From the NCBI GenBank assembly GCA_032718475.1, contig JAUCBJ010005675.1:1-64000 (forward strand): a DNA stretch of 64,000 bases, in the 5' to 3' direction. Every line of letters starts with the position of its first letter. The first letter of the stretch is position 1. A model generated the notes under the pieces. It was not told where the DNA came from. It did no database searches and saw only the letters and a program-made list of their open reading frames with translations. Source of the DNA: Nemertoderma westbladi (lineage: Eukaryota > Animalia > Xenacoelomorpha). A program made the translations under genes and the position numbers. Of the stretch, positions 3,782-31,010 are shown one piece after another.

Positions 3782-4859
3782 TTATTGAATATGCTGTACC
3801 CACGACTGTTTCTTGGATCCGATGAATCGGACTAAATATTCTTTCTTCCCATTGCGTACACGTTCTTTAAGTTTGCCAATATTTTTGTCAATTGGAAGAT
3901 AAATATTACTATTCGGGTGAACCTTTTGGAGTTTGTATGAATAAAATGAGCCATTTATTATAGCTCCAGCGCTGTCCTTAATATCGAACATCTCTATCCA
4001 ACCTGACACGATGAATAATAAATAATTCACGTGTCCATTGTTCTCGATAGCCTTTAGCAAAAGCAGTACGAGCGATAGATAATCGTACTGTATCTCCAAC
4101 TTTAAATTTTATTTTCTTGTGATTAATCTGTCTATATTTCCCATATAATCTATTCATTAATTCAGTTTCATTAAATTTATTAACTTCAATAGGTGTCATT
4201 TGTATTGTCCTATGATATGACCTATTATAAGCATAAATGAGCTTTGGTAAAATTTTAATCCAAACATTATTTCCCCGTTGCGTGAAAATTTTGAACATCT
4301 TTGTTTTTAATGTTCTATTGAATCTCTCGACAATAGCCGCCTTATTCACAGAATACATTACGTAATACTGTATACCTAACGTATCTAAATATTTTCTTAC
4401 AGATTTATTTAGAAACTCAGACCCTTGATCAGTCACGATTCTGTTTGGTTTTCCTTTCTGGAATATTTTTTGCAATATACTAATAATTTCAATACCCTTT
4501 TTTGTTTTCATACCATAGGCAAAAGCAAGCCTGCTAAAGGCATCAATACATGTTAATATATAGTTATAATTATTATTTTGCGATTTATATTGCTGCATAT
4601 CCACCAGATCTATCATATATATATCTTTTAAGCCTCCCGTAAATATTTTAGATGTTGGATAATGATGTCTACGTGGAGCGTGAAGGGTGTATGTCTTTTG
4701 CCCGCTCAACCATTTCTGGGCTTGTGCTGGTTTGATGTTTGCAGCTTTTGCTAATTTTGAAACACTTGCAAAACCCGCGGGGGATGATGGATCTAAATAA
4801 ATTCTTAACAGTTTTTTGTCTAAGCTTCGGCTTAAAATCGGTTTCATCTTGCGTGGCAT
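3782..4859 (-). pseudogene. Polinton retroviral-like integrase with C-terminal chromodomain-like region, frameshifted near 3990
   Basis: IDLVDM, CIDAFSR, TDQGSEF and AIVERFNRTLK form the DDE core; FKVGDTVR...W..E is present. The C-terminus GSFYSYKLQKV...KKEYLVRFIG lies in the 3782..4099 frame. Confidence 0.88.
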
Positions 4860-5083
4860 CTTTTCGACAACCGCAAGTAATATGTATATTCAAATCTCTT
4901 ATAAAGGGCATCACCGTAAGAACAACTGAAATTTTTTAATTATTTTCTTTGAAGTTGATGTTTTAAAGGGTTTTCTTTTTGTAGTATTTACTCTAGGTAT
5001 ATCTTGTGGTTTTAAATCAGTAGCTAACGGTTTACTCGATACTAAATATAATTTTATAAATGTTACTCCTGTTTTAACCATTA

Positions 5084-6547: not shown

Positions 6548-8979
6548 ATGCCAAGAGAGGTGCCTAAATTTCCTATTTTGCAACCAGCAGGGTTCCCAAC
6601 CCCACATACGCAACCAAGAGAGCGAGAGCTACCAGCTCCCCTTGTGCAACCATAAGGGCTTATAATTCCTCTAATGCAACCAAGAGAGCGTGTGCTACCA
6701 GCTCCCCTTGTTCAACCAGAAGGGCTTCTAACTCCTCTAATACAACCAAGAGAGCGAGAGCCACCAGCACTCGTTATGCAACTGGGAGTGCATCCAATTC
6801 CTCTCATGCAACCACCACGAGGGCTTCTATCTCCCGCCATGCAACCAAGATGGCTTATTCTACCTCCAGTAAAAACAACCAAGAGAGCTTCCAACTACCT
6901 ATATACAACCAGGAGGGCTTCTATCTCCCATCATGCAACCAAGTGAGCTTCAAACTCCAGTTATACAACCGAGAGAGCTTCCAACTACCTATGTGCAACC
7001 AGGAGGGCTTCTATCTCCCTTTATGCAACCAAGTGAGCTTCAAACTCCAGTTATACAACCGAGAGAGCTTCCAACTACCTATATGCAACCAGGAGGGCTT
7101 CTATCTCCCATCATGCAACCAAGATGGCTTATTCCAACTCCAGTTATAAAACCGACAGAGCTTCCAACTACCTATATGCAACCAGGAGGGCTTCTATCTC
7201 CCATCATGCAACCAAGATGGCTTATTCCAACTCCAGTTATACAACCGAGAGAGCTTCCAACTACCTATGTGCAACCAGGAGGGCTTCTATCTCCCTTCAT
7301 GCAACCAGGTACACCTCCAGTTATACAACCGAGAGATATTTCAACTACTTATATACAACCTGGAGGGCTTCTCTCTCCCACCATGCAACCAAGTGAGCTT
7401 CAAACTCCTTATACGCCACCATTGGGACTTCCAACTCACTATATGCAACCAGGAGTAGAACATAGTCAACAATTCTTTATGCCACTACACCCTATCAGTA
7501 TTCAACAGGAGGGACTGCGTCAAGCCATCACCCAAACACACCCAAACGCTCTTATTAGGCAAACAGAATGTCCGCCAAGGCAGTGGTGTCCACCACAGCG
7601 GGACATGTTGGAAGAGAACAAAACATACCATGGTCGGTGTGATTCTTTTAATGTTGATGAACAACATGGGTACATAGAACCGGATATCGGTAAGATAGCT
7701 GTGCCTTTTTTTCAGTCAAAAGTTCATATTGATGGATACCACAAAATTCTGAAGGAGGGTGACGCTGTTATATTTCAATGCGAAATTAGAAAATATAGAA
7801 ATGATATAAATGTTTATGGAGCAACATGGGTTAGTGTTCCAGGATGTAATTATTGCGGCTCATATAGATATAAACTTCCTAACATAATTAGAGGAGACCA
7901 TAACTTATACCGGCCGTTGTACATACTATAATGATAATGATAAATATGGATATACTATTCCATTTGATAAAAAAAATTACATGGAACTTTGTGATGGAAC
8001 TTTGCCACACAATATACTTTCGTGATAATAACATCCATGTTAATAAGAGATGCCGTATCCTGTCTATTCAAGTCAGAAAGCTTTTATTCCAGTATAGTTA
8101 TAATAATCCAGTAGGTTGTCGAAAGGACACATGTGTTACAATAGAGGATGATGATTCATGTGAGGTAGCTAAAAATATTAACCTTAACCAAGTTGGAGAA
8201 AGCAAACGTGTGCAAAGACAAACAGATAAGTATGATATGATAGAGGATGGTAAAACATACACAGGACAAGTGGGTATCGTTATGCCACAGGTGTTACAAT
8301 AGAGGATGATGATTCATGTGAGGTAGCTAAAAATATTAACCTTAACAAAGATGGAGAATGCAAACGGATAAGTAACATAATCGATAAATGTTATATGCTA
8401 GTGGATGATAAAACATACAAAGGACAAGTAAAATTACTTTCGAAAGATGAGAGTTATTGGTTTACTGTACCGATAATAAGCGGATTGACACTTTGCCGTT
8501 GTTATTCTTCATTAACTGTGCCTTCTAACATGCACATTAATGGACTCCAAAAGATGCTGAAACATGATGACTTCGTTAGATTCCAGATGCACTCTTATTA
8601 TTTACTCACCAGACGAGAAGAAGCCTTAGTGGTTACCGTGGAGGGAGACTTTAAATGCAGGGCCGCACGGATGGTAAACAGGAACACAAATAGTATTGAA
8701 GAAAACAAACCACACAATATTGAAGATGTCCAGTCCATACCTTGTATGAGGAAAGAACATATACTGGCATTTACAGTTGTAAATTATTCAAGAATGAAGC
8801 AGATTATGGATATATAATTCCAAAAATTAATGAGAATTTACTGTGTAGATGTTTCAGAATATTAGTTAATCGGGAAATTTATGAATAAAGAGGAAAAGTT
8901 AGTAATGAAAACCCAATTTCGATTCCGATTTGACGAAATAAAAAAACGAAGGATAGCAACATCGGTCCAGGTCATTTAA
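6548..8979 (+). pseudogene. intronless, frameshifted gene: Pro/Gln 10-aa repeat region followed by about three divergent cold-shock (OB-fold) domains
   Basis: CSD1 TYHGRCDSFNVDEQHGYIEPD...HIDGYHKILKEGDAVIF...ATWVSVPG; CSD2 TYKGQVKLL...HINGLQKMLKHDDFVRF; CSD3 in an unlisted frame from ~8755, TYTGIYSCKLFKNEADYGYIIPK. Stops and frameshifts separate the segments. Confidence 0.6.
6580..7455 (+). repeat. coding minisatellite of 30-33-bp units (xQPxxLxxPx) arranged in ~90-bp higher-order repeats
   Basis: Recurrent atgcaacc / atacaacc; protein units MQPSELQTPV-IQPRELPTTY-MQPGGLLSPI. Confidence 0.9.
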
Positions 8980-11089: not shown

Positions 11090-12792
11090 GTGAGCAATTT
11101 GCCGCTTATTTCAAGCAGCTGTTATCTTCTCAGGAACATGCACAATCTATCACAGATGTAATTAACAACGAAATAAAGTCAATATAAATCTTTATTCCAA
11201 TTCTAGACAGCGATATAAACCCGAACGAAGTTTCAATCTGCTTAGCGAAATTTAAAGCTTCAAAATCGGCAGGAATAGATGGTCTACCTCCAGGAATCCT
11301 CAAATTATTAAGCGATGACTGGCTAATTGCAGTTACTTTATGCTTTAACGATGTTTTCACTGGTAAGGTCCCATACCCCACAGATTGGTCCACTTCCCTG
11401 ATGGTTACGATTTATAAGAAAGGAATTAAGTCACTACCAGAGAATTATCGGGGAATTTCGGTCACTCTGGCCTTGTCTAAATTGTACGACTCCGTCCTTA
11501 CTGAGCGTTTTAATTTATGGTCGAAACCGTCACAATATCAGGCAGGCGCACAGAAGGGACGAGGCTGTACTGAACAGATATTGTGTGTTCGTTTGGCAAT
11601 CGATATTGCCATCAAAACAAAGCGAGAGTTATTCATTGCCTTCATCGACTACGAGAAGGCCTATGACAAAGTTGACAGGATAGTCTTACTCAGGAGATTG
11701 AAACAGATGGGTTGTGGCAGAAGGTTTCTTATGGCTTTATCAGTATCAATGCAGGAGACTATAAATGTAATAGGCAACACAACGTTTGAGAGTACGGGTG
11801 GTGTAGGACAGGGTAAGCCTTCCAGCTGTCCACTATTTTGTACACACATAGACCCTACAATTACAAAAATGGATCGTTTAGGAAAGGACAGTTGGCTAGA
11901 TTCTCTTCATGGAACATTATTAATGGATGACACATGTGTATTGGCTACCTCCCGAGCAAAGTTAACTGATAAACTTAACATCCTCAAAGATGTATGCGAT
12001 GAAATTGGAATGACTTTACATCCTAAAAAGTCGAAATTTCTGACCTCATCCACTCTCGATAGCGACAGAATCCCCATCTTGATAGGGAACATCACAATTC
12101 CAATTGTATCCTCCTATGTCTATTTGGGATCTTTAATATCAATTCACCCCGTAGCAGTTCAAATTGATGACGAAATTAAGATGCGTATTGGTAACTACCA
12201 CAAATTCACTTCATTCCTCGGCAAAAACTGTGACGCTCCCTTTACCGTGAAGAAGTCAGTATGGCAGGCTGCTCTCCAATCTTCGCTATTATACGGATGC
12301 GAAACATGGTTATGTAATAACATCAAACCAATTGTTTCAGTGTTTTACAGAACGCTTAAACAACTACTCTCAGTTCGATTAACAACACCAAATGATCTCG
12401 TCCTTATTGAAACTGGCACTGAACATGTCAAGAGTATCATTAAGAATCGGCAGTTAAAGTTCCTGAGGTCATTGTCCTCACGGCCTGGATATAAAGACAG
12501 TTATCATAACTACATTATGAACGAAGCTACATCAGTAAACTCACCAATGGGAAAATACGCCAAAGAGCTAATAGATACGGGTCATGTCATGTCGGAACTC
12601 CAAGCTGCAAAAGATCGAACTCTTACAGCCATAACGACAAGGTGTGTGAAATATGTGGCATACAACCCAACTCAGAAACCCCATGAATTATACTCTGACC
12701 CTAATGTACCCGAGTGGGAGAGAATCTCATTTTCAAGGATCAGATTGAGTTCCCATCGGCTACCAATGGAGATACTTCGATGGTCTTGGTAA
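11090..12792 (+). mobile_element. 5'-truncated non-LTR retrotransposon, reverse transcriptase ORF (main open part 11401-12792)
   Basis: KSAGIDG, PENYRGIS, FIDYEKAYDKV, GVGQG..SCPLF, LLMDD, YVYLG, LLYGCETW and RIRLSSH.L. Confidence 0.9.
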
Positions 12793-13314
12793 ATGCTTAT
12801 GTGGTTCTACCCAATCAGATCATCACATATTCTTTGTCTGCCCATTAACGAAAGTATTCGCTTGGATTTTGACTTTCCACCACCATCGTCATCCCTATCC
12901 AGAGTATTTGATAACCTCGGAACCCGATCCGCATCAATGTGCCATAAAATTATTAAAGTATTAGAGCCCGCACAAGTATAAATTAATAACAAGGAAGGGA
13001 TTAAAATAACCGTAAATTAATAATAAATCAAATAATTAAGTATACATTTCATTAAATATAGCCAATTTCACGAACACGAACAAAAACGAGCATTATGTAC
13101 ATATATTGAATTTTTCTTTTTTTTTCCGCATTTTTGCATTACGAAGCGGCGTATAATTGGACTTAATTTTAAGTGTGTATTTTAAGTATTTTAAGTGTTA
13201 TTGCATTTAACGTATGTAGCCAAAGTATCAATGTGTGTGTCTTTATTGGTGAAGGGTTTGAATTACATGCGAGTTTCCATCTCAAAAATTATGTCAATAA
13301 ACAACTAACTAACT

Positions 13315-16300
13315 ACCCTACTGCCATATTAGAATGTAGGAGAGAGTAGGAAGGTGTACAACAGTGACATACAATAATGCAGGAAAGAGTAGGAAGGTGT
13401 ATCACCATTACTGCCATACCAGAATGTAGGAAAGAGGAGTAAGTTATACCACCATTACTGCCATACTAGATTGTAGGAAAGATTAGGAAGGTGTACCATA
13501 CTGGCATACCAGAATGTAGGAAAGAGTAGGAAGGTGTACCATACTGCCACTCCAGAATATAGTAAAGAGTAGAAAGGTGTACCATACTGCCATGCCAGAA
13601 TGTAGAAAAGAGTACGAAGGTGTACCATACTGCCATACCAGAATGTAGGAAAGATTAGGAAGGTGTACCATACTGGCATACCAGAATGTAGGAAAGAGTA
13701 GGAAGGTGTGCCATACTGCCATACCAGAATGTAGCACAGAGTAGGAAGGTGTACAAAATACTGCCACACCAAAATGTAGGAAAGAGTAGGACCGTGTACC
13801 ATACTGCCACTCCAGAATGTAGAAAAGAGTACGAAGGTATACCATAGTGCCATACCAGAATGTAGGAACGAGTAGGAAGGTCTACCATGCTGCCATACCA
13901 GAATGTAGTACAGAGTAGGAAGGTGTACCATACTTCCATACCAGAATGTAGTACAGAGTAGGAAGGTGTGCCATAATGCCATACCAGAATGTAGTACAGA
14001 GTAGGAAGGTGTACCATACTTCCATACCAGAATGTAGTACAGAGTAGGAAGGTGTACCATACTTCCATACCAGAATGTAGTACAGAGTAGGAAGGTGTAC
14101 CATAATGCCATACCAGAATGTAGTACAGAGTAGGAAGGTGTACCATACTTCCATACCAGAATGTAGTACAGAGTAGGAAGGTGTACCATACTTCCATACC
14201 AGAATGTAGTACAGAGTAGGAAGGTGTACCATACTTCCCTACCAGAATGTAGCACAGAGTAGGAAGGTGTACCATACTTCCATACCAGAATGTTGTACAG
14301 AGTAGGAAGGTGTACCATACTTCCATACCAGAATGTAGTACAGAGTAGGAAGGTGTACAATACTGCCATACCAGAATGTAGTAAAGAGTAGGAAAGTGTA
14401 CCATACTGAAATACCAGAATGTAGTAAAGAGTATGAAAGTGTACCCTACTGCCATATTAGAATGTAGCAAAAGAGTAGGAAGGTGTACCATACTGCTATA
14501 CCAGAATTTAGGAAAGAGTAGGAAGGTGTATCACCATTACTGCCATACAAGAATGTAGGAAAGAGTAAGAATGTATACCATACTGAAATACCAGACTGTA
14601 GTAAAGAGTATGAAAGTGTATCCTACTGCCATATTAGAATGTAGGAAAGAGTAGGAAGCTGTACCATACTGCTATACCAGAATTTAGGAAAGAGTAGGAA
14701 GGTGTATCACCATTACTGCCATACCAGAATGTAGGGAAGAGTAGTAAGTTATACCACCATTACTGCCATACCAGATTCTAGGAAAGATTAGGAAGGTGTA
14801 CAACAGTGACATACAAGAATGCAGGAAAGAGTAGGAAGGTATACCATACTGCTATACCAGAATTTAGGAAAGAGTAGGAAGGTGTATCACCATTACTGTC
14901 ATACCAGAATGTAGGAAAGAGTAGTAAGTTATACCACCATTACTGCCATACCAGATTGTAGGAAAGATTAGGAAGGTGTACCATACTGGCATACCAGAAC
15001 GTAGGAAAGAGTAGGAAGGTGTACCATACTGCCATACCAGAATGTAGCACAGAGTAGGAAGGTGTACAAAATACTGTTACACCAGAATGTAGGAAAGAGT
15101 AGGAAGGTGTACCATACTTCCATAGCAGAATGTAGTAGAGAGTAGGAAGGTGTACCATACTTCCATACCAGAATGTAGCACAGAGTAGGAAGGTGTACCA
15201 TACTTCCATACCAGAATGTAGCACAGAGTAGGAAGGTGTACCATACTTCCATACCAGAATGTAGCACAGAGTAGGAAGGTGTACCATACTGCCATACCAG
15301 AATGTTGTACAGAGTAGGAAGGTGTACCATACTTCCATACCAGAATGTAGCACAGAGTAGGAAGGTGTACCATACTTCCATACCAGAATGTAGTACAGAG
15401 TAGGAAGGTGTACCATACTTCCATACCAGAATGTAGTAAAGAGTAGGAAGGTGTACCATACTGCCATACCAGAATGTAGTACAGAGTAGGAAGGTGTACC
15501 ATACTGCCATACCAGAATGTTGTACAGAGTATGAAGGTGTACCATACTTCCATACCAGAATGTAGCACAGAGTAGGAAGGTGTACCATACTTCCCTACCA
15601 GAATGTAGCACAGAGTAGGAAGGTGTACCATACTTCCATACCAGAATGTAGTACAGAGTAGGAAGGTGTACCATACTGCCATACCAGAATGTTGTACAGA
15701 GTATGAAGGTGTACCATACTTCCATACCAGAATGTAGTACAGAGTAGGAAGGTGTACAATACTGCCATACCAGAATGTTGTACAGAGTAGGAAGGTGTAC
15801 CATACTTCCATACCAGAATGTAGCACAGAGTAGGAAGGTGTACCATACTGCCATACCAGAATGTTGTACAGAGTATGAAGGTGTACCATACTTCCATACC
15901 AGAATGTAGTACAGAGTAGGAAGGTGTACCATACTTCCATACCAGAATGTAGTACAGAGTAGGAAGGTGTACCATACTTCCATACCAGAATGTAGTAAAG
16001 AGTAGGAAGGTGTACCATACTGCCATACCAGAATGTAGTACAGAGTAGGAAGGTGTACCATACTTCCATACCAGAATGTTGTACAGAGTAGGAAGATGTA
16101 CCATACTTCCATACCAGAATGTAGTACAGAGTAGGAAGGTGTACCATACTTCCATACCACAATGTAGTACAGAGTAGGAAGGTGTACAATACTGCCATAC
16201 CAGAATGTAGCACAGAGTAGGAAGGTGCACCACCATTATTGCCATACCAGAATGTAGTACAGAGTAGGAGTAGGTGTACCATAATGCCATACCAGAATGT

Positions 16301-17234
16301 AGGAAAGAGTAGGAAGGTGTGCCATAATGCCATACCAGAATGTAGGAAAGAGTAGGAAGGTGTACTATACTGCCATACCAGAATGTAGCACAGAGTAGGA
16401 AGGTGCACCACCATTATTGCCATACCAGAATGTAGTACAGAGTAGGAGTAGGTGTACCATAATGCCATACCAGAATGTAGGAAAGAGTAGGAAGGTGTAC
16501 CATACTGCCATACCAGAACGTAGTACAGAGTAGGAGTAGGTGTACTATAATGCCATACCAGAATGTAGGAAAGAGTAGGAAGGTGTACTATACTGCCATA
16601 CCAGAATGTAGGAAAGAGTAGGAAGGTGTACCATACTTCCCTACCAGAATGTAGGAAAGAGTAGGAAGGTGTACCATACTTCCCCACCAGAATGTAGGAA
16701 AGAGTAGGAAGGTGTACCATACTGCCATACCAGAATGTAGTACATAGTAGGAGTAGGTGTACCATAATGCCATACCGGAATGTAGGAAAGAGTAGGAAGG
16801 TGTACTATACTGCCATACCAGAATGTAGGAAAGAGTAGGAAGGTGTACCATACTTCCCTACCAGAATGTAGGAAAGAGTAGGAAGGTGTACCATACTTCC
16901 CTACCAGAATGTAGGAAAGAGTAGGAAGGTGTACCATACTGCCATACCAGAACGTAGTACAGAGTAGGAGTAGGTGTACCATACTTCCATACCAGAATGT
17001 AGCACAGAGTAGGAAGGTGTACCATACTTCCCTACCAGAATGTAGGAAAGAGTAGGAAGGTGTACCATACTGCCATACCAGAACGTAGTACAGAGTAGGA
17101 GTAGGTGTACCATACTTCCATACCAGAATGTAGCACAGAGTAGGAAGGTGTACCATACTTCCATACCAGAATGTAGTACAGAGTAGGAATGTGTACCATA
17201 CTTCCATACCAGAATGTAGTAAAGAGTAGGAAGG
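13315..17234. repeat. 43-bp tandem satellite, left part
   Basis: Unit TACCAGAATGTAGTACAGAGTAGGAAGGTGTACCATACTTCCA. The 43-aa period of the minus-strand ORFs equals three units. Confidence 0.97.
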
Positions 17235-17414
17235 TGTTCGCGGTATTTCAACTTTTCATAACGCGAGTTGAATATTTTTTGTACTTATTTAAAATGATTA
17301 TTCCGATATCACTACTGGGTGCGGGATCACGGGTTTGGGCACACTCTATGAACTGGGGGCGATTTATGGGCGAATATTGGGGCGACTTACAGGGTACGGG
17401 ACTCATTTCATGTT

Positions 17415-17450
17415 TATAAGGGCCAGGGGTGGGAGGCAAAATTAAGCAGT
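17415..17450 (+). promoter_or_regulatory. LTR core promoter: TATAA with a CAGT initiator about 30 nt downstream
   Basis: TATAA at 17415-17419 and CAGT at 17447-17450; the same arrangement is in the 3' LTR. Confidence 0.55.
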
Positions 17451-18321
17451 ATTCAGGTTCGCCTGAGTACTATTAGGCCTAGCCCACGCGCCAGGCCTAA
17501 AGGACAAGGACTGCCCTTAGCGGTCCCTGGCCAACAGCAGTTATTACGAGCCTGAAAAGGACATCGGAACGCCGGCTGCTTGTGTCAGGGATTTGCGACG
17601 GGAAACGACACGACAGACCCCTAGCCAAGCCGTACTGGTTCTCGATGATCGTTCCCTTCGGGGTTCGTGAGGGGTGGGATGGACACGCGAAAGGGTCTAC
17701 TGACTAACAGAGGAAGGGTTTGACGAGGACTGCCCTTAGCGGTCTCTGGTCAACAGCAGTTATTACGAGCCTGAAAAGGACATCGGAACGCCGGCTGCTT
17801 GTACCAGGGATTTGCGACTGGAACCGACGACAGACCCCTTAGCCAAGCCATACTGGTTCTCGATGATCGTTCCCTTCGGGGTTCGTGAGGGGTGGGACGG
17901 ACACGCGACGGGGTCGAAAGACAAAGGACTGGACTCTACTGGCCTACCGCCTGTTCGGAGTAGTTTCTCGGCCGCCGAAGCGACTACGAGCCTGAATAAG
18001 GACTCGGAAAGCCTAGGAGGTTGGGTCTCTGCGATGAACCGACGGACCCCTAGCCAAGCCGTACTGGTTCTCGATGATCGTTCCCTTCGGGGTTCGTGAG
18101 GGGTGGGATGGACACGCGAACGGGTCCATCGACACGACAGACTCCTAGCCAAGCCGTACTGGTTCTCGATGACCGATCCCTTCGGGGTTCGAGAGGGGTG
18201 GTACGGATACGCGACAGAGTCTACCGACTGGACTGACCCTTAGCCAAGCCGTGCTGGTTCTCGATGATCGATCCCTTCGGGGTTCGGGGGGGGGGGGGTG
18301 GAATGGACACACGACAGGGTC
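17448..18321 (+). ncRNA. structured RNA array in the LTR: leader hairpins, Y-type long hairpins and five X-type kink-turn/UUCG hairpins
   Basis: X units at 17615-17698, 17833-17915, 18044-18127, 18139-18222 and 18235-18321 have covarying closing stems (GACCC/GGGTC versus GACTC/GAGTC) and the core CTC-GAT-GA-YCG...CCC-TTCG-GGG..CG-WGA-GGG. Confidence 0.65.
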
Positions 18322-18906
18322 GACCGACACCGACACTACGGCATCAAGACTAGGACCGAGGGAAAATCTGGGGAACATTAGGCTAAAATCTGAGCGAACA
18401 GTGGGTAATTAAATAATTTACTGTAGGGATTTATATTGTCGTGTATTATTATTGTGAATAATTTGGTGTATATTGGTTTGGGGAAGCCCAATTTATTCTC
18501 AATCAAGGTTCAACTGTAGGGAAGTTACATTAAAGCGTATATCCAACCAATGCAGCTTTTTCTCAACCGCAATCTTGCATTTAAGAACATTCCTTCTCCA
18601 CAATCAATATCCGGTGACTGGCCGGGATTCCGTGGTCTGTAAAATTCCGCCTCCAGCATCGGCGTTTTCCCCCATGGTGTCGGGAATAACGGCAACAAAA
18701 TTGAAAATAAAATCGCGGCCAACTTCAACTGGTGGAAGTTGGGAATCCTACAATACTCTTCAAAATCTCTCCGTGCTTACCAGCACCCACTACGAGGAAA
18801 CTCTGGTATTTGAGTTAAGACAAAGTCGTGGTCTAATAAATCAACAAACTCGATCTAACCAACTCGTAGTCGGCAGATCACACATTTGGAGAGTTGTTAA
18901 CAGGGA

Positions 18907-19098
18907 ATGGAAGTATCGATCACACCCATTGATATAATCCAAGTTGAGCCAGGAATCTGGCACGTCGAGGTTGAAGTACAAGGAACGAACGTCGGACAAT
19001 TCAGGATTACCGTTCGGGTGGTCCAGGCTGAGTACAACACCTACGAGGAACTATTTTACGACATCGCACATCTAGCTATCAACGAGGCGCTACAATGA
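18907..19098 (+). CDS. small acidic upstream ORF (63 aa) whose stop overlaps the gag start (ATGA)
   Basis: ATG at 18907; TGA at 19096-19098 overlaps the ATG at 19095-19097; protein-like composition. Confidence 0.4.
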   Translation: MEVSITPIDIIQVEPGIWHVEVEVQGTNVGQFRITVRVVQAEYNTYEELFYDIAHLAINEALQ

Positions 19099-22000
19099 CA
19101 ATGAATAACGTATCCGATACCGATGAGATGGACCACCACACAGACTCGGAAGCCGACGAGGTACCAAACGTCAAGAACATGGCCCGTCGACTAGGTGCTC
19201 TCAAAGGCGGAGTCACACGAGCGTATCAACGCATAGAGAAACAACTCAAGGGAGTCGAAACCCCCCTCAACGAGATACAAACTCAGCTTCAGAATATCCG
19301 AAGTATTCTACAACGATATGAGAGAATGATACAGGCGTACCAAGAACTCATCCCCACCATCGACTAGGTAAACTACCCCAAATTGGAAGAACACGTTGCA
19401 CGCCTAGACGAATTCCGCAAACAACACCGGAGAACCCTCAGCCTCGTGAGAGGCTACGAGGAACAGTTCTACAAGAGAGCTGAAAGAACGGACGCAGAAT
19501 CAGTGCGAACCTCCAACACCAGGACCACAATTCATCGAAAGAGAACGGGGTCCTCAAGACACCAGCGCTCCAGCGCTAGGAGCGAGATATCCGGCTCAGC
19601 ACGCAGTTCTCAGGGGGGGCCGCCACTCCGAGATCAGCTACGAGAACAGAAGGCATTAGCCCTCAAAGCTCGGATGGAAGATGAGTATGTTCAACTGCGA
19701 ACCGAGCAAGATGTAATAGCCGCCGAAATGCAAAAACAAGAGGCCGAGCAAGCGGCCAAATGACAGGCCGAGCAACGTGAACAGGAAGCTGAACAACGTA
19801 AATGGGAAGCTAAACAACGTGAACAGGAAGCTGAACAACGTGGACGAGAAGCCCAACAAGAGATCGAACAACGTAAATGGGAAGCTGAAATGTGTAAACA
19901 ACACGCCGAGGCCCAAGCGATTCTCATACACAAAAAGAATGCGGATGTTGCGAAACTCGCGGAGTACGAAGCCGCACTTATAGAATGAGATATTCAACTC
20001 TACGAGGACTGGGAAAGGGATATAGATCAGAATTATGAACCAATACCGATACCAGAATTAGAAAAGTCATTAACGACACCAGCGGTGAAACCCCCGAAAC
20101 CCGAGTTCCCGCCTACCATACAGTCTACGTTATCGGCACAAGCACCGGTATTCCATCCCCCACCGGTTACGCTGAAGAATGAGGAACCTTATATCCCAGC
20201 TAACCCCACGATCCCGAGCGTCCCCAAGTACGAGCCTGAAAAGGACTCGGAACGGATCGCTACTCCCCGATCCAACAACCCGTTTACATCCACACCACAA
20301 ACCCGTAGTCGTGTCATCATTAAGATTCCACCTATCATTGATCCATCGAGTATGGGAGAGAGCGCCAATAACTATAACCCTCCAAACCACTCCAGTTCGG
20401 ACGACGTCGGCATTATCCAGGCATTGGAAAACCGCCTCTCCATGCCCAAGATGGAGATCCGCACCTTCGAAGGAGATCCCGTCGATTACCTCAGATTCAA
20501 GAAACGGTTCTTTGCGCAGATTGGATCAACGGACATAGCCGACGCACAGAAACTGGTATATTTATCACAATACCTGGGTGACAAACCACGCCGAATCATC
20601 GCTTGTTTTGAGGGAGGTTCTCATGAAGCATACTACGATGCATGGAAAACTCTAGACAAAAGATACGGAAATACCGGGACTATAATTAATAAAACTCCAG
20701 AGAAACTGATACAGGACGCGGGATCACTAGGGGACCCACAGAACATCCAGGAATTCTCAGATTCCATGAAGGATGCCTACTACACTCTGAAACCTTTAAA
20801 TAAGGAGGACCAGGTGAACAACATTCTAAACCTCCGACAGATCGCCCGGAAGTTCCCCGGATGGCTGCAAAGTAAGTGGGCCTATAAATGCGTAGATCTC
20901 CGGCGCAGACATCCAGATCAAGACCCCAGCTTCCTCGAAATGTCGGGATTCCTGGACGATATCTCCGAAGCCATGAATGACTCGATGTTCTCGAAACAGA
21001 GTCTCGCCAAGTTGGACGCAATAGAGAACAACTCCAGGAGTAAGACACCCACTCAGAGGCCGAGATTCCGCCCCCCTCCGGTGAGCACGATGGCTATCAC
21101 CATGGCCGAGGATTCCGACGATGAAGACTACGAGGAACCAACATCAGCCGAGGAATGGGCGTGTTATCTCGCGAATTGGGCACCCGAGAGGGAAGGCATC
21201 ACAAACTCCCTTCTCTGTCTCTATTGTGGAGAGAAACATAAAGTTGAATTCTGCAGGAAGTTCCAGTTTGCCGAACTCGTCCCACACTTCGAGGCGATTA
21301 TGAAACACCGAGGATGCTTCCGGTGTCTGGGAACAGGTCACTACATTCGGGATTGCGACCAAAGGTCGTGTTGTGCGGTTTGTAACGACCTACGTCATCA
21401 CACGCTCCTCCACATCCCCGCGAACTTCGACTTCACCACCCTCCCCTTTCGGATTGAAGCCAAGCGAAGAGGAGAAACAAACCATGTTTCTAAAGGAACC
21501 CGGACAACCCAACGGAGAGAAACCAACCCGTTTAAAATCGCCACTAACGCATCACCAGTGACAAATATCTCAGCCACGATTAACCTTATAAATCGCCGTT
21601 ACATGGTCTTCGCCAAAGTAATCCCAGTAAGAACTCAAGGGGTCGGTAAATCCTTGACGATGCTCGCGTTCCTTGACAACGGGTCGGACGGAACCATCAT
21701 CGACCGGGATTTCCTCGAGCAACTCGGCCTAGACTATGAGCCTTGCAAACGGCCCATACAAACTATCACCGACCACAGAGAGGTAGAATCCGGGGAAGTG
21801 CAACTCCAGATGGAAGAGGTAATGAAGGGCTATGAGACGGTTAAGCTGACCATCAAGAACGCCTTAGTACACACAGACCTCCGAGTGCGGTTCCGACAAT
21901 CAGCCGAGTACGCCCCCCTCATACAGCTGGACCGAGACGACGTGGATCTAAGGTGCCCGCCGTTGGATGTAAACCGCATCACCCTACTGATCGGACTCGA

Positions 22001-25000
22001 TACACCTGAACTACACATACCCACCGGAGACGTCGCCCGATCTATAAAGCAGGATGACGGCTTTTACGCTGAACGAACAATAATGGGATGGACACTCTGC
22101 GGCATCAAGGAAGAGACTACCGACACCTATACATACCTTCCTAAATGTCAGATTAAAGAAAATGCAACATCCGTGGGTTATTTCTCAGCTACAGACCTCG
22201 ATGAGGATTTATTTCTTGAGACCGAAAAAACCCAGCAAGAGATGACTAAATACTTTAATCTAGAGACCCAAGAGTTCGCTGAAAAGGACTAAAACCCGTC
22301 CGAGGAGGATCAATATTGTATGGATGTCCTGGACCAGGCCACGTTCAACGACGGACACTGGTGTTCACCCATGTTATGGAAGGACCCAAGCAAACCAATG
22401 GCAAACAACGCCAACATGGCCCTTAGGCGACTTAAGGGGATTCTACGCCGGCTGAATGACCAACCCGAGATAAAAGAGAAATATAACACCGTAATCAAAG
22501 GATATCTCGAGGATGGATTAGCAGAAATGGTACCACGGAATGAACTGCAAGGGGGTAAAAGAACATATTATCTTCCAACCCACTATGTGGTAGAAGCCCG
22601 GAAGGGCGGTAAAATCCGAGTAGTTAACGATGCCGCTGCTATGTACCAAGGCGAATCCCTGAACAGTCAGCTTTATACGGGGCCCAACATATATAGTACA
22701 CTTATCGGCGTATTGATCAGGTTCAGAGAAAACCGGATAGCATTCACCTGCGACATCAAAGCCATGTTTCACCAGGTTCGTACGCTACCAAGAGACTCAG
22801 ACTGTCTATGTATCCTATGGACGGATAAAACACTAACTCAACTGGAGATTAGTCAACTTACAATGAAGGATGTAGACGTAATGCGTATGATCGTCAGGAT
22901 CTTCGGAGCTAAGGACTCGCCGGTAGCATGTAGTGACATGCTGAAGAAGACGGCAACCATGTGCGAAAACGAGTTCCTTCCAACCATCATAGAAACCATC
23001 CGACGATGCTTCTACATGGACGACGGATGCGCCGGCGCAGATAATGTGGACGAGGCATATCGGCTAGCAATGGGAATGGTAGAATGTTTAAAGAAAGGAG
23101 GTTTCCCGCTCGTGAAGATCAGATCCCACGACAAAAAACTTATGGAAAAGTTTCCGGAGGACATCCGACTGGACAACAACAAAATGTATTCGGAGGATGT
23201 GGAACACCGTGTACTTGGTATTGAATGGGACATAGAATCAGACGAATTCATTTTCAAATATAAACCCCTACCCAAGCCTATGACGAAAAGGGGATGTTTG
23301 GCGATAAAAAGCGCAATCTTTGACCCACTAAATTTCATATCTCCGGTAACCTTGGCCAGAATGAACCTGATTAAGGAAATGTGGATAGAAGGACTGGGAT
23401 GGGATGAAGAACTCCCCCCACACCTCAGCGTCAAATGGAGAAAATGGACGGACCAGCTCGAACACCTACATCTTATGCGGATCCCTCGACCGTTCTTCCT
23501 CGATAAACTACCCACCGATATCTTCCAGCTCCATACCTTCTCGGATGCTTCGAATACCGGAATCGGCGTAGTCACCTTCTTACGAAGACTAAGCAACGAT
23601 GGAAACGGCGATACGAGCTTTTTATTTTCTAAAGCTAAGACAGTATCCGGGGAATTCGTAGCAACGATTCCAAGACTCGAGCTACAGGCTGCAGTTTGGG
23701 CAGTGAGACAGAACCGCATGGTCATGCGGAACCTACGAATCCCCATCGAATCTCAACACTTCTGGGTTGATTCGAGCATCGTTCTCTACTATCTCCACTC
23801 TCCATCCCGACGTCACACTACGTTTGTAGCGAACCGAGCCGCGGAGATAAAACAGTGTACCGGCCGAGAACAGTGGCACCACGTAAACGGGAAAGAAAAT
23901 CCAGCGAACTTATCAAGCCGAGGCGCCACCCCAAAACAACTCGGTAAAAGTAAACTCTGGCTTACAGGCCCGGAATTCCTACAGCAGCCACAATTAACAT
24001 GGAGTACCCGATTCGACCCCGAACTCGATAGTGGAAAATACTCCGAGGACGACAAAGAGATCCGTAAAGTCCATAGAAGCAACGCAGTGGAAATTTATAG
24101 TTGTCTGACTGAGCCTGCAAAGGACTCGGGCAGGCACTATAACGTTGCGACGATCATTCAACCAGCGGCGTCTTTACATCTGTTAATCGAGCGAACTTCA
24201 TCAATGAGACAGGCTCATCCACCACGTTATAACCCTTCGCAACTTCCTACGGTGGAAAGACAACAAGCCGATAGTTCAACGGAGTATACAAGAACTCATT
24301 ATCGTGGAGAAGTGTATCGTTGGATATGTCCAGAGAGAAAGTTTCCCCGATGAGTGGGAACAACTCAGTGCGGGCAAGACCTTGAAACCGGACAGCCCAG
24401 TCTACCAACTGAGAACAATGATGGGAGAGGATGGACTGATCCGACTGAATACCCGGATGGCAAACGCCCCGGTCGAATATGAGGTTAAATACCCGGCGCT
24501 TCTGCCCGGAACTTCGACACTAGCCAAGCTATTAATTCAACAATGTCACGAGGAAAACCATCACGCAGGACAGAACTGGATTATAGCTAATATAAGACAA
24601 AGATATTGGATCACACACATCCAGCCACTGATCCGGAAAGTGTTGAAACGTTGCTTTACCTGCAGAAGATATCTAGCACCACCACTCACACAAAAGATGG
24701 CCGACTTACCAGCCACCCGTCTACAGCCCGATTCCCCACCGTTCTACGTCACCGGAGTGGACTGTTTTGGACCGTTTACGGTCATCGAACGACGATCCAA
24801 CATCAAATGCTGGGGAGCCATTTTCACCTGCCTTAGGTCTAGAGCAATCTACCTAGACATTGTGGTAAACCTTACGCAACACGCATTCATCAACGCTCTG
24901 CGTAGGTTCGTGGCGAACAATGGGACATGTCGTCACATGTACTCCGATAATGGTACAAACTTTGTGGGAGGAGAAAGAGAACTTAGAGAGGCGATCGAGG

Positions 25001-25718
25001 AATGGTTTACCGATAACACCGCATCCCAAGTCTGGAAGGAACACCAGATACAGTGGCATTTCCAGACACCATTAGCACCCCATACGAGCGGGGTATGGGA
25101 GAAACTGATCGACTTAGTAAAACGATCCATGGCGTCGCACTAGGAGACACCCGGGTAACCCATGACACCCTCCGCACAACATCCTGCGAGATCATGGCTA
25201 CCCTGAACAACCGGCCCATTGTCCTTATCTGCGACGACCCCACAGACCTGGAGCCCCTCACTCCTAACCACCTACTGGGGAGACCCAAAACTCATGTTCT
25301 CCCAGAGACAATGTTTCCGGATCCCAACGATATCGCGAGACATACAAATTGGAAGAAGGCCCAAGCGTTGGCAGCGCATTGGTGGAGAATCTGGGCCCAG
25401 GAGTACCTCATAACCCTCCGGACCAGGAGGAAGTGGAACAACACCTACAGGAATGTCGAAGTTGGCGACATGGTGCTGGTCAAAGAAGACCTCAAAGACC
25501 ACGTCCACTGGCCTGTGGCGCGAGTCGTGGCAATACAACCGAGCAAAGACGGACTTGCGAGGACTGTGACGATACGAACGGCAAAGGGCCACTACCAACG
25601 CCCTATCCAGAGGCTGTGCCTTCTTGAAGGCAATGACAGCGGTGACTCTACGAGAGGTGATAAGTTCCCTACTCAAGATCCTGCTGCAGACATTGGTGAC
25701 AATGCTAAAACCGTGTAA
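19095..25718 (+). pseudogene. BEL/Pao gag-pol polyprotein (Gag with 3 Zn knuckles, aspartic protease, RT, RNase H, integrase), broken by stops and frameshifts
   Basis: CLYCGEKHKVEFC / CFRCLGTGHYIRDC / CAVCNDLRHHTLLH; AFLDNGS; CDIKAMFHQV and FYMDD; HTFSDAS and IPRLELQAA; HHAG..CFTC, GVDCFGP, SDNGTNF and GVWE; WPVARV and RPIQRL. Confidence 0.95.
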
Positions 25719-25996
25719 ACCCTTCTCATCCTGTTGACAAACTCTTTAAAACGTGATTTATCGACAATGAAAAATGGACCCCCCTTAAACCAACTGTAAC
25801 CACGCAATGGTATTTGTGTTTCCTCGTGTGTTATGTGGAGTCCAGCATCACCCTGCAGATGTTTCGACTGACGCAGGGTCGTTTATGTATTGTTTACCCT
25901 GATTTTGGTCATCGGGACCAACGATATTGGATTATTGGAAATGGTAAAGATTTGAAGTGGAATTCATTGTATCCATTGTAGTATGTTATGTTGTCC

Positions 25997-26408
25997 GTTG
26001 CGTGCGCAGTTCGGGGCGTAGGCGGTGTAACTAGTCCAGCTGTAGATCCCGGATTGCCGCGCAACACCCCCTCTATCCCGTTATTCTGGTGGGTCCATGG
26101 TGCATCCACATGACTTCGACGATAGAGGGTTTTATGTTTCTCAGTCGCGTTATTCTGGTGGGACCGTTGCGTGGATTTTGGGGCGTAGGCGGTGTAACTA
26201 GTCCAGCTGTAGATCCCAGAATGTTGCATAACCCCATCCCACATGACTTCGTCGACTGAGCTTTATGTTGTTGGGAGTGTTATTCTGGTGGGTCCCTGGT
26301 GCATTCCACGTGACTTCACTCCCAGCGTCTTCATTGTCCGTTACGTGCGCAGTTTGGAGCGTAGGCGGTGTAACTAGCCCAGCTGTAGATCCCAGATTGC
26401 CGCGTAAC
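25997..26408 (+). ncRNA. modular structured RNA element between pol and the accessory ORF (A1-B1-B2[A2]-B3-A3)
   Basis: Three copies each of two conserved cores, set in closing stems that differ in sequence but remain complementary. Confidence 0.7.
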
Positions 26409-26930
26409 ACCCCTTCCACAACAAAGATTTCCCAAAGAAGATGATTGAATGTAGTTGGAAAAGATGAAAAGAATCAGACAACTCTACTATAAACCGAATG
26501 GTGACGCGTATGATGATGAAAATGAAATGATGCGCACCCTGGTGCTGCGCTTATAACAAATGATGATAGCCGGGGGGCTATAACCCCAATGATGATGTGG
26601 AAATAAATGAAAATGTGAAATAAATGAAATGTGATGAAATAATAATGAGAAATGAAAAAAGACAAAAAAAAGGTATAAAAAAGTCTAAAGAAAAGAATTG
26701 GAAAAAAGAAGAGGACATAAAAAGTCATAAAAACTGGTTGGATATTAATGTATAGCTATAGTAACTGTAAATGCTGAATGTATTAGTAATAAGATGATAG
26801 ATGCCTATATAGCAATGTTATTTAATAAACTGAATTAAAAATAAACTGAATTATTCTGCAATCACTATAGTTTCAGACTTTCTGGACTTATAATTAACTG
26901 ATATAATTTGCAACGGACATAATTGTAAAT

Positions 26931-29536
26931 ATGGACCCAAATCGCCAAATTATCGGCGAATTACGTAATACGATAGATCTACTGGAATATCCACAACCCG
27001 GATCCCCTAACTTTGATACAGATTGGAACACCCTAATAAATGAGAATGTGCGATACGTCAAATTCTGCGGGCGAGAGGGACCGGATTCCCGGAATCTACG
27101 AGCCCTCCGGTTGGCCGATGCTAGTACGAGACTGAAAAGAACTCGGAACGCAAAGGCTACCGGAGGGGATGAGTTGTCGTATTGGGAAACGTTCCGGCAA
27201 AGCGTCTACAGATCCCGATGTTTGATATACGACAACGAGGGAAATGCGACGCCCACCTCGAAAGCGATGACGTTGGCGCGATGTCAAAGTTTCGTCGACG
27301 ACAAGAGTACGTACCTCACACACTGGGGAAACCTGTCGGAGTGTACGGCGACGCTACGAGAGGAACGTATATCGATCATCCAGAATCGCGATGACTACCG
27401 GGAAAAGTACGGAGCGAAAGAATACGGTCGATCCTTGGTCGTCGTCCTCGGAACCCTGGACGGTTTGGTATTGGTGTGTCGAATATTTCCAACACCCAGA
27501 CAGGAAGTGCAGGCAGCCGGAGCGATCTGGTTACTACCTCCGGAAATCCAAAAGATCCTCTTCGACTTCGACGTCATTAAAATCGGGTCGGATATAAAGG
27601 CGGACGTCCGGAACGACTACGCGAACGCTCCTTCAGGAAGAGACCGACGAGACGACCTCAACGCCCTTAGCCATTGCGTCGACACTCAAACGCTATTAGC
27701 CTGGTTACGATTCGCCGAGTTCATGCGAGGATTCCAAGAGGTGAGACCGACGAAATCCGGGATTGGCTACCTCGCTGTGCTAAACGGCGGCATCGACTTC
27801 AAACCTCAGAAACTCCGGGATTATAATAAAATATATGGTGGATACCCGGGATTAGAAATAAAGAGCGAGCGAGAGGGTCGATGGAAGGACGTGGAGAGAA
27901 AGTGGACGATACACCAAAAGTGGGAGAATCCGGAACGACGGAACTACATCTACGTTGTTATGGAATCATACACCGTCGCTAAGTTTATCTGTAAAACCCT
28001 CGATAACCTCATTATGGCGGTTCCTCTTTCCTTCGTCGACTACGACTGGAACGAGGTTGTAAACCACGCGTTCAAAGCGGTCGAGAACATTACACCGGGA
28101 GAGATGAAAACGCTCGCCGTCATCGATTCCTGGGACGAGAGCGGACCTTACGACATCCCTACGATTACCGATCTTCTCGGTGCGGAGGAGCCTCTGATTT
28201 CTTCGGAAGGGGAAGAACTATGGCTGCAGGAGGGCATTCTACTCTCCACCCCGAAGCGACAACTCGAGCCGGAGGCCGCTTACCAACCGGCAGCCAAACG
28301 GGTTGCCTCCGCCGAACCTGCGACGGAAGCGGGCGTTTCCTCACCTCTTGGCTCCGGTAGCCCTGCGAGGGAGTTAATCACCACCTCCGCGTTGAGCAAC
28401 TTCGGCGATATATGCCAAAGGTTATCCCCATATCATATCCTTTCCCGGGTGGCGAAGACTGGTCTTCAGAGATTCCGAGTACCAGCAACCAACGGTCACG
28501 CTCAGCGATACTGGTTGAAAAGGGTCCCAGCGCTGCGCCGACTCCCGACGATCTCCTCGGAATCCCTCGGTCGAAAACCCCGGCACCTCTTCGCCGACCA
28601 GCGGTGGCTACTACACCCTCCGTTCCTCAGGATCCTATGCGACTAACCCGTTGGTACGCCGAGCAAACCGAATGGATCCACCGCCAGAAACGGTCGTCCG
28701 AGTTGAGACCGGCAGGACATAAAGAAGGTTATCGGAGCGAGGACCTACTACGCAAAAGCCCAGCCTTCCGCGGGCTACCAGCCACCGCGAATATTCAGAA
28801 GAGTGACCGACGACTCGAGTATTACGTCGGCGTCCCGATTCCGATATTCCCCGGTCGAGAGATGCAGTTGGAGGTGTGCGGTAACTGCGGTTCGGAGCAG
28901 TGCCCACGCGGTAAAAGAAATCGGGTTACCGATTCGTGCCTCCAGCTCCTCGGGATACTTTATTGCCCATACTGCGCGACATCGGGCCACGACGTTACCG
29001 TCTGTCCGATCCTATATAACCTCTGCACTACGTGCAGTTTCCGTGGACATTCCGCTAGCCCCCGCTGCTATATCAAATGTCCTACCAAAGACGTTACCGC
29101 TATGGGAAATATGGTCATGTTTGAAACATACGCAAACAGCCACATAAGGACCAAAACGCGGAGAAACGCTGGGAATATCGCGCAGGAGATGGCGTGCGGG
29201 TATTTTTCCTTCCCGGAGCGCCTACATACGACGGCAAAGCTACCTTTCCATTATGTGGATCTGCTGCTGAGCGCCGGATTATTCGGCCCATTTGAAGTCC
29301 TTAGACGCTTAAACTCGTATAAAGAGGAGTTCGGTGACGGAGAGTGGTTCCTTGAGGCTCGCAACTCCGAGTTGGAACGACAAACCGATATGATCCCGTT
29401 GCCATCGAAAGGAAGAGCCGCCAGGAGACAAGCCGAAGCGTTGCTCACGATGGATGTTGACGCTCCTCTACCAGCTCTAGCGATCGACGAGAGTCGACGG
29501 GCGAAGAGGAGAAAGGCGTATCAGAGAAAGAAATAG
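26931..29536 (+). CDS. accessory ORF in the env position: DnaQ-like (WRN/EXD/Egalitarian-type) 3'-5' exonuclease fold, P/S/A linker, Cys/His zinc knuckles and basic tail; one -1 frame change near 28360-28410
   Basis: VVLGTLDGLVLV..LPPEIQKILFDFDVIKIGSDIKADV..CVDTQ..SGIGYLA..W...NYIYVVMESY; then CGNC..., CPYCATSGHDVTVC, CTTCSFRGHSASPRC and RRAKRRKAYQRKK. Confidence 0.65.
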
Positions 29537-29714
29537 TGGACTGGGATATTCCAGGAACATTTATTGAACACTTATTTTTATACATATATATATATAAACT
29601 CTAGGCCAAATTAATCAAGACTATGCAATATTAAAATTTTGGGGTTTTTTATATGGGAATGACCTACGCAAACTCAATCTACCGATAGACCTCACGAAGG
29701 TCATTGGGGGGGAC

Positions 29715-30557
29715 TGTTCGCGGTATTTCAACTTTTCATAACGCGAGTTGAATATTTTTTGTACTTATTTAAAATGATTATTCCGATATCACTACTGGGT
29801 GCGGGACCACGGGTTTGGGCACACTCTATGAACTGGGGGCGATTTATGGGCGAATATTGGGGCGACTTACAGGGTACGGGACTCATTTCATGTTTATAAG
29901 GGCCAGGGGTGGGAGGCAAAATTAAGCAGTATTCAGGTTCGCCTGAGTACTATTAGGCCTAGCCCACGCGCCAGGCCTAAAGGACAAGGACTGCCCTTAG
30001 CGGTCCCTGGCCAACAGCAGTTATTACGAGCCTGAAAGGGACATCGGAACGCCGGCTGCTTGTGTCAGGGATTTGCGACGGGAAACGACACGACAGACCC
30101 CTAGCCAAGCCGTACTGGTTCTCGATGATCGTTCCCTTCGGGGTTCGTGAGGGGTGGGACGGACACGCGACAGGGTCGACCGACACCGACACTACGGCAT
30201 CAAGACTAGGACCGAGGGAAAATCTGGGGAACATTAGTTAGGCTAAAATCTGAGCGAACAGTGGGTAATTAAATAATTTACTGTAGGGATTTATATTGTC
30301 GTGTATTATTATTGTGAATAATTTGGTGTATATTGGTTTGGGGAAGCCCAATTTATTCTCAATCAAGGTTCAACTGTAGGGAAGTTACATTAAAGCGTAT
30401 ATCCAACCAATGCAGCTTTTTCTCAACCGCAATCTTGCATTTAAGAACATTCCTTCTCCACAATCAATATCCGGTGACTGGCCGGGATTCCGTGGTCTGT
30501 AAAATTCCGCCTCCAGCATCGGCGTTTTCCCCCATGGTGTCGGGAATAACGGCAACA
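29715..30557 (+). repeat. 3' LTR (843 bp) with a single Y and a single X hairpin module
   Basis: Direct repeat of the 5' LTR, preceded by the PPT and followed by the TSD. Confidence 0.95.
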
Positions 30558-31010
30558 GAAGGTGTACCATACTTCCATACCAGAATGTAGTACAGAGTAG
30601 GAAGGTGTACCATACTTCCATACCAGAATGTAGTACAGAGTAGGAAGGTGTACCATACTTCCATACCAGAATGTAGCACAGAGTAGGAAGGTGTACCATA
30701 CTTCCATACCAGAATGTTGTACAGAGTAGGAAGGTGTACCATACTTCCATACCAGAATGTTGTACAGAGTAGGAAGGTGTACTATACTGCCATACCAGAA
30801 TGTAGCAGAGTAGGAAGGTGTACCATACTTCCCTAGCAGAATGTAGTACAGAGTAGGAAGGTGTACTATACTGCCATACCAGAATGTAGGAAAGAGTAGG
30901 AAGGTGTACCATACTTCCATACCAGAATGTAGCACAGAGTAGGAAGGTGTACCATACTTCCCTACCAGAATGTAGCACAGAGTAGGAAGGTGTACCATAC
31001 TCCCATACTT
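30558..31010. repeat. 43-bp satellite, right part (a last remnant follows at ~37139-37162)
   Basis: The same unit resumes in register after the BEL TSD. Confidence 0.95.

Follow-up and report, generated by a model that had tools for sequence, protein, structure and literature searches.

Related RNA Signals and Motifs

Retroviral genomic RNAs contain cis-acting signals, with psi and TAR as examples. Systems comparable to the locus described here include the RRE of HIV and the CTE of MPMV (PMC4829213) as well as Cer1 (PMC10309623), all of which, like the present locus, place structured sense-strand elements on genomic RNA. Additional copies of the CTE lead to more export (PMC4829213), and the export of Cer1 RNA requires a Cys-rich accessory protein, CERV (PMC10309623); the present element also encodes a Cys-rich accessory protein (ORF2). 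Unlike RRE, CTE, and psi, the signals described below are modular, arranged in tandem in an LTR, dispersed over three ORFs, and share no sequence or Rfam match with known signals; the likeness is one of analogy.

The exonuclease-like portion of ORF2 has its own counterparts. The bdelloid LTR elements Juno and Vesta carry a DEDDy exonuclease as ORF3 (PMC5408684), and the present element likewise appears to carry, after pol, an additional ORF that resembles RNase D. In contrast to Juno and Vesta, it is a BEL/Pao element, joins the exonuclease-like domain to zinc knuckles in tandem, and has a first acidic motif that is apparently not intact; the sections of that paper drawn on here do not mention RNA modules. 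In Egalitarian, a non-catalytic exonuclease domain helps to hold bulged stem-loops, including the I-factor ILS (PMC13186709). The ILS resembles the Y module described below in being a retrotransposon stem-loop with a 3' bulge, and two stem-loops act together. It differs in that the upper helix of Y is just 3 bp long, and any homology of ORF2 to Egalitarian would be putative.

Standard k-turns, as laid out in PMC5061560 and represented by Kt-7, U4, and box C/D (PMC5061560, PMC4382518, PMC5689011), are bound by L7Ae/15.5K and contain a 3-base bulge with G.A and A.G pairs, and the X module described below is the same in these features. A C:G pair at -1 and at 4b:4n favors k-turn folding, a U.U at 3b.3n is intermediate for folding and typical of box C/D, and a C at 3b permits folding (PMC5689011, PMC4382518). 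X is like box C/D in its U.U at 3b.3n and like Kt-7 in its C:G at -1 and 4b:4n. Unlike standard k-turns, X is repeated within a retrotransposon LTR, has a weak C helix and a competing register, and is a candidate k-turn; the list of k-turn hosts in PMC5061560 names no retroelement. Leader k-turns that fold on protein binding are known from the archaeal l7ae 5'-UTR, whose k-turn, a proven one in an mRNA, acquires structure only when L7Ae binds (PMC6298567), and from synthetic tandem 5'-UTR motifs, where copy number tunes output (PMC3711428). In contrast to these leaders, the present array is natural, eukaryotic, located in a mobile element, and far from the start codon. Among the titles and abstract starts judged, there was no description of kink-turn or GNRA modules in LTR retrotransposons or of an extra exonuclease ORF in BEL/Pao elements.

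The Element and Its Setting

The window, that is, the whole stretch of DNA that was analyzed, comprises 64,000 nucleotides (64 kb) from Nemertoderma westbladi. A 13.3-kb LTR retrotransposon occupies positions 17235-30557; it has integrated into a 43-bp satellite, and the insertion is flanked by a 5-bp target duplication, GAAGG. All features of the element given below lie on the plus strand. The 5' LTR (17235..18697) is 1463 bp long with TG...CA ends, and the 3' LTR (29715..30557) is 843 bp long. The gag-pol region (19095..25718) is broken by stops and frame breaks and encodes, in order, DUF1759, a zinc knuckle, a protease, Peptidase_A17, an integrase, and DUF5641. The element is assigned to BEL/Pao because of this domain set, and its TG...CA LTRs and 5-bp target duplication have the structure of that group. 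Of 420 homologues, those that match best have the same domains and no more than 40% identity, and corals, fish, and molluscs are among their sources. Outside the array described below, the LTR pair is nearly identical, with changes at 2 of 381 and 0 of 378 positions and one 4-base indel, so the insertion is recent. Contigs from three studies of one organism contain many variant copies of the element.

Inspection of the expected primer binding site revealed an LTR border without TGG; a TGGTGG is found approximately 33 nt inside, within an 8-bp hairpin (18698-18760). A search for a tRNA gene or self-primer for the element found neither. An excess of TACGAG within the element (13 compared to 3.1 expected) was set aside, as several of the copies encode in-frame Tyr-Glu.

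The 43-bp satellite is present in approximately 100 copies at 13314-17237 and 30558-31008, around the insertion. Two additional satellites, located at 55658-57527 and 60373-62165 (24/48/72-base and 23-base units), show a strong skew between strands and contain long open frames. Pieces of other mobile elements are seen in a reverse-transcriptase ORF on the plus strand (11188-12792) and an integrase-core ORF on the minus strand (3978-4889), and an ORF at 6568-7931 has coding repeats of 30/90 bases and, after them, a weak match to a cold-shock domain (E 9e-5).

The Hairpin Array of the LTR

The 5' LTR contains hairpin units in the order H1 H2 Y1 X1 Y2 X2 Y3 X3 X4 X5, including five X and three Y units. 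The X and Y units are arranged head-to-tail, are 85-95 nt each, and are joined by short purine-rich linkers. The initial annotation had described a tandem hairpin array in the leader of an LTR; the sequences are present at the position given, within the 5' LTR, and both this location and the reading as RNA structure hold, most strongly for Y. The order in the 3' LTR is H1 H2 Y X, in which X is a hybrid of X1 and X5, and this LTR is 620 bases shorter, with the difference falling within the array. X-to-X joints (back 93-95 bases) and one X-to-Y joint (back 193) occur in the contigs, and multi-unit arrays are therefore present in other copies of the element too. A basal YTAGC...GCGA internal loop, originally ascribed to X and Y in general, is common to X1-X4, Y1, and Y2 and is absent in Y3. 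Searches of Rfam returned no family near its gathering score for the array (three weak matches), and two weak matches for the element.

A predicted promoter (17357..17450) contains three GGGCGA repeats, a TATAAG at 17415, and an initiator-like GCAGT with its A at 17448. The GCAGT is presumably an arthropod-type initiator, and the start site is a predicted one. The first base of H1 (17448..17471) is the A of this motif (predicted +1). H1 is a 10-bp hairpin with a gUUCGc loop (z -6.0 relative to shuffles), and no variant at a frequency of at least 2% is listed at the corresponding 3' LTR positions in the contigs. The earlier description of a perfect hairpin with a cUUCGg loop is accurate in that the hairpin is strong, but one of its pairs is G.U and a G-C pair closes the loop. 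The arms of H2 (17473..17500) are perfect and pair fully over an 8-bp stem, as had been stated, but the interior is atypical of the family; it is a variant, because the contigs have other letters between the arms.

A candidate polyadenylation signal, ATTAAA, is located at 18529..18534, with another at 18408. If the predicted start and the ATTAAA act as expected, the array would fall in R and be present at both RNA ends. The genomic RNA of a retrotransposon carries all LTR sequence. Because every LTR segment is in genomic RNA, the array would be RNA-borne whenever the element is fully transcribed. A start site lying beyond the array had been named as grounds for refuting the proposal; such a start would relocate the array to the RNA's 3' end without removing it, and the argument fails. 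The predicted leader (17448-19095; ~1650 bases, or 1.65 kb) contains 12 AUGs before the first gag-like ATG, nine of which are in the array, and the array ends approximately 770 nt upstream of the gag-like start codon.

The Y Module

Y1 (17514..17602) consists of a long stem, an internal loop, and the core GAG-CCT-GAAA-AGG-A-CATC (z -3.2 and -3.4). A second copy, Y2, is located at 17733..17821, and the third, Y3 (17960..18033), is the most diverged. Most units have the GAAA loop reported earlier; Y3 has a five-base GAATA loop instead, and the pairing of its flanks alone is not significant (70/500). What the initial annotation missed is the recurrence of the Y core inside gag (20217..20263, core at 20232), pol (24079..24148, core at 24111), and ORF2 (27103..27167, core at 27128). 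The core GAG-CCT-GNRA-AGG-A-CTC is found three times in the internal region compared to 0.02 expected (100 shuffles), and within the 64-kb window it is found neither on the minus strand nor outside the element. A search of the 64 kb with a model of the module (R1) identified seven Y copies, all on the plus strand of the element, six of which are the training sequences. Scans of viral contigs and prokaryote genomes with a DNA pattern of the Y core gave no match.

The structure of Y has been examined through covariation and through comparison with shuffled sequences. The proposal that Y modules covary is supported: 5 of 13 pairs are changed on both sides, and the alignment scores 0.43 vs 0.19, a result reached by 0 of 500 shuffles. 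In this alignment, which comprises five distinct sequences from which the structure itself was derived, 92% of cells are paired, and slid controls score no more than 0.14. The flanks of the core are unrelated in sequence between copies, yet their pairing is kept. When the core is fixed and the flanks are shuffled, pairing as good is obtained in 3/500 (pol), 0/500 (ORF2), 13/500 (Y1), and 9/500 (Y2) cases. Comparison with synonymous alternatives yields 0/1000 for the pol site, 3/1000 for ORF2, and 61/1000 for gag; the flank pairing in gag is not significant by this comparison or by shuffling (152/500). Among 160 coding windows, the pol, ORF2, and gag sites rank 1st, 4th, and 7th, respectively. 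The pol hairpin, with its long stem (z -6.8), ranks first in stability among 332 windows of the element, and the ORF2 copy has a 9-bp basal stem (z -3.8). With respect to the reading frame, the core occupies phase 1 in both gag and pol but phase 3 in ORF2, and because two codon phases are used, protein coding does not explain it.

Several of the differences between copies are informative with respect to the fold. The GAAA loop is replaced by GCAA in pol, maintaining GNRA. The internal loop beneath the core is UA/GAA in most copies; in the gag and ORF2 copies it is AGUA/GAA, which is taken to be a bulged-G (loop E, sarcin-ricin) motif. In the ORF2 core an A.A replaces one C-G pair, and the same double change is seen in an LTR Y variant in the contigs, which suggests that exchange between Y sites is possible. 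Of the two modules, Y gives the stronger signal. A separate GNRA-capped hairpin (GTGA loop; z -4.5), located at 19435-19465 in the 5' part of gag, is unlike Y.

The X Module and the k-Turn Question

The X units are approximately 95% identical to one another, and a search with a model of the module (R2) found X in the LTRs only, in six copies. X1 (17615..17698) is a hairpin with the k-turn pattern and a cUUCGg cap, and the pattern is retained in X2 (17832..17916) and X3 (18044..18127). X4 (18139..18222) also has the pattern, with C.A at 3b.3n, and a strong alternative fold is predicted for it. In X5 (18234..18322) the 3' GA is replaced by a G run and the pattern is lost. The sequence TCTC-GAT-GA-(T/C)-CG ... 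CCC-TTCG-GGG ... CG-(T/A)-GA-GGGG of X1-X4 gives, in these units and the X of the 3' LTR, a C helix, a GAU bulge, G.A, A.G, U.U or C.A, C-G, G-C, a 2x2 loop, and the CCC-UUCG-GGG cap. Consequently, the claim that each X matches the k-turn consensus is true of four of the five units in the 5' LTR (X1-X4) but not of X5, where the G run replaces the 3' TGA. The 3-nt bulge, G.A (1b.1n), and A.G (2b.2n) are present in five of the six units (X1-X4 and the 3' X), X5 being the failure, and the X5-type 3' change is not found at a frequency of at least 2% in contigs of other copies. Other positions that influence k-turn folding are compatible as well (3b U/C, 3n U/A, 4b:4n C:G, and -1b:-1n C:G), and the NC helix extends beyond 3b.3n. 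The C helix, TCTC/GGGG, is weak, with two G-C and two G.U pairs.

In 5000 shuffles of X1, a loose k-turn descriptor was matched 288 times, the descriptor with L3=U 54 times, and the RUGAU..UGA (box C/D-like) geometry 0 times, this strict descriptor having been picked after the motif had been seen. The loose descriptor is also matched at 11 sites across 37.7 kb of unrelated sequence in the window.

Variation among copies offers additional insight. In the contigs of the three studies, variants at a frequency of at least 2% occur at seven sites of the 84-base X unit within the pairing model, excluding X4-only variant rows at 30090-30100, which fall at a unit junction with indels. None of the seven breaks a pair, the G.A core, or the UUCG, compared to 2.2 expected (P=0.04). 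Two T>A variants convert U.U mismatches into A-U pairs, and two of the variant sites are 3b and 3n. Free variation of the G.A positions had been named as grounds for rejecting a k-turn. The four G.A positions are invariant in the contigs, but they would escape 7 variable sites of 84 by chance with P=0.70, and X5 has lost its 3' GA. The claim that the closing stems of X covary is not supported statistically: 2 of 23 pairs are changed two-sidedly, and shuffled partners do as well in 143/500 cases. The copies are too young for covariation at the sequence level to decide the register of X.

Folding predictions with a standard energy model give z values of +0.2, +1.4, +0.7, -2.5, and +1.9 for the X units, which fold no better than shuffles. 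In X1, X2, X3, and the 3' X, the model favors, by approximately 5 kcal/mol, a register shifted by two bases, in which CTC pairs with GAG and AUGAU is bulged; X4 is predicted in a third fold. The k-turn pairs have a probability of no more than 0.001 in this model. This preference leaves the k-turn unrefuted, because the model ignores k-turn contacts and the known mRNA k-turn is unstructured without L7Ae. Based on these results, it is about an even call whether X is a real k-turn.

Related motifs were considered and rejected. Full box C and D sequences have G:C at 4b:4n. X has C:G at this position, is without a guide region, and lies in an array with no Rfam match, so it was not assigned as a box C/D snoRNA. 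SECIS elements combine an AUGA/GA core with a longer upper helix and an adenine-rich loop. The AUGA/GA core is present in X, but only 8 bp separate it from the UUCG cap and there is no Rfam match. A DNA pattern scan of viral contigs for the X core gave no match, and the single metagenome match to the X pattern, in an apparent bacterial coding region without hairpin context, was attributed to chance.

ORF2 and the Z Module

ORF2 (26934..29536) is contained in two frames, with a break near 28361-28646, and appears to encode an RNase D/EXD-like domain and Cys/His knuckles. No match to ORF2 was found in Pfam, PDB, or a word index, and a single relative, P0121, was identified among 1.84 billion representative proteins. 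P0121, encoded on a 9.4-kb contig, aligns to ORF2 in two regions (E 4e-16 and 4e-11; 29% identity); used as a query, it retrieved itself only and no viral locus. It has a weak Pfam match to an exonuclease (E 0.2), a weak zinc-knuckle match, and, at the level of a lead, an Atlas link (0.86) to exonuclease-plus-CCHC clusters. A profile of ORF2 and P0121 matches the nucleocapsid knuckles of HIV through the part contributed by P0121 (E 3e-4). These comparisons suggest that an exonuclease-like domain and zinc knuckles in tandem are common to ORF2 and P0121. In the alignment of the two, the first D-x-E motif is lost in ORF2 and later acids are retained, and the predicted structure of ORF2 has a pLDDT of 37. 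The loss of the first acidic motif, as seen in this alignment of two sequences, suggests RNA binding over cutting.

The coding windows for the ORF2 zinc knuckles (28860-29045) are more strongly folded than synonymous alternatives (z -3.5 and -3.2), ranking 2nd and 3rd of 160. Between pol and ORF2 there are three copies of a third hairpin module, Z (25996..26411), which has an almost invariant 36-base interior and stems in which 4 of 25 pairs are changed on both sides. A second short repeat, GTTATTCTGGTGGG, alternates with Z. An Rfam search with Z gave no match of weight (one weak match).

Proposed Function and Alternatives

The units have the appearance of protein-binding sites because they combine a short invariant core, exposed loop and bulge bases, and interchangeable stems, and because they are repeated near the ends and dispersed on the sense strand. 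By analogy to known systems, it is proposed, with roughly equal chances of being right or wrong, that the array and the dispersed Y copies together act as a multivalent scaffold on which proteins dock, thereby marking the genomic RNA for packaging or nuclear export. Transcription would begin at approximately 17448, H1 would cap the RNA, and the array would lie in R at both transcript ends. Y, with its GNRA loop, bulged A, and UA/GAA-type internal loop, would likely be read by a zinc-knuckle protein encoded by the element, either the NC of Gag or ORF2. X is a likely site for host Snu13, as the UUCG cap, 8 bp from the kink, offers no docking loop; that X adopts a k-turn on binding by a host protein of the L7Ae family (Snu13/15.5K) is a prospect that its sequence features leave finely balanced. 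The partners named for X and Y are both putative. The unit number may shift through recombination or template slippage between units, which would tune the number of bound proteins. Export or packaging fits best because the Y sites mark the whole RNA and more copies of the CTE give more export. This choice over translation is made by analogy, and the data here do not separate them.

Other explanations account for parts of the data. X may function as a plain bulged hairpin, folded in the shifted register (CTC:GAG, AUGAU bulge), with Y as the real signal and the k-turn pattern a coincidence. For X1, X3, and the 3' X, folding predictions put this register at the minimum (pair probability 0.89-0.99); it provides a near-continuous helix and would place the 3b T>C variant in a free bulge. 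It is, however, broken by one of the seven common variants (3n T>A), while the k-turn register is broken by none; the four other bulge bases have no variant in the contigs, the absence of the box C/D-like geometry from all 5000 shuffles argues against coincidence, and the known mRNA k-turn also has no structure until L7Ae binds (PMC6298567). An ordinary hairpin is accordingly held to be a doubtful account of X, though one to be taken seriously. The array could also act in translation of the 1.65-kb leader, as a site of internal entry, a shunt, or a protein-operated brake, with the internal Y copies as pausing or coupling sites. The 12 leader AUGs make plain scanning unlikely, and in synthetic systems translation is tuned by protein-binding motifs placed in tandem in the 5' UTR (PMC3711428). 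A translational role nevertheless seems quite unlikely, given that the array stops ~770 nt short of the start codon, Y lies deep within ORFs, one LTR is down six of the eight units, and no Rfam IRES match of weight was obtained (best E 7.7, minus strand).

It is less probable still that the units are promoter or enhancer repeats acting at the DNA level, or neutral products of reverse-transcriptase slippage, with incidental hairpins. Tandem repeats abound in the host genome, and the near identity of the X units, their folding no better than shuffles, and the unstable unit number are consistent with such an origin, but it leaves unexplained the sense-only Y copies in three ORFs, whose unrelated flanks still pair, and is at odds with signatures of RNA, namely the kept GNRA loop and changes that tolerate G.U or close mismatches. 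Ribozymes are present in the repeats of other retroelements, and the box C/D-like core of X and the head-to-tail units of 85-95 nt with purine-rich linkers would suit ribozymes or precursors of small stable (snoRNA-like) RNAs excised from the LTR transcript. The probability of this is very small: no Rfam family scored meaningfully, boxes C and D are imperfect (C:G at 4b:4n), lie 8 bp apart around a UUCG cap, and have no guide region, and cleavage at the gag and pol copies of Y would break up the genomic RNA. Resemblance to the hairpin, twister, and hammerhead ribozymes was dropped, since their catalytic loops are absent.

The docking scaffold can be extended into a more specific model, in which the genomic RNA would carry a two-key address. 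A true k-turn array would load Snu13, a host protein of the snoRNP and spliceosome, and enter a small-RNP export path, and Y would be read, in a Rev-like manner, by a catalytically dead exonuclease/zinc-knuckle protein. This extension is unlikely as a whole. A search for a sister family with these modules found none.

Implications for LTR Retrotransposons

By analogy, the array would work like known retroviral cis-signals, with an architecture that appears to be new among the descriptions searched. The selection and export of RNA by invertebrate LTR retrotransposons are understood for very few elements, and the signals here are short, repeated, and naturally varied, which makes their synthesis and direct testing feasible. 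That the Y hairpin is kept within three coding regions gives a hint of what this type of accessory protein binds. If borne out, a k-turn array occurring naturally in a mobile element would represent a new role for the k-turn and Snu13 and would mirror a standard device of synthetic biology.
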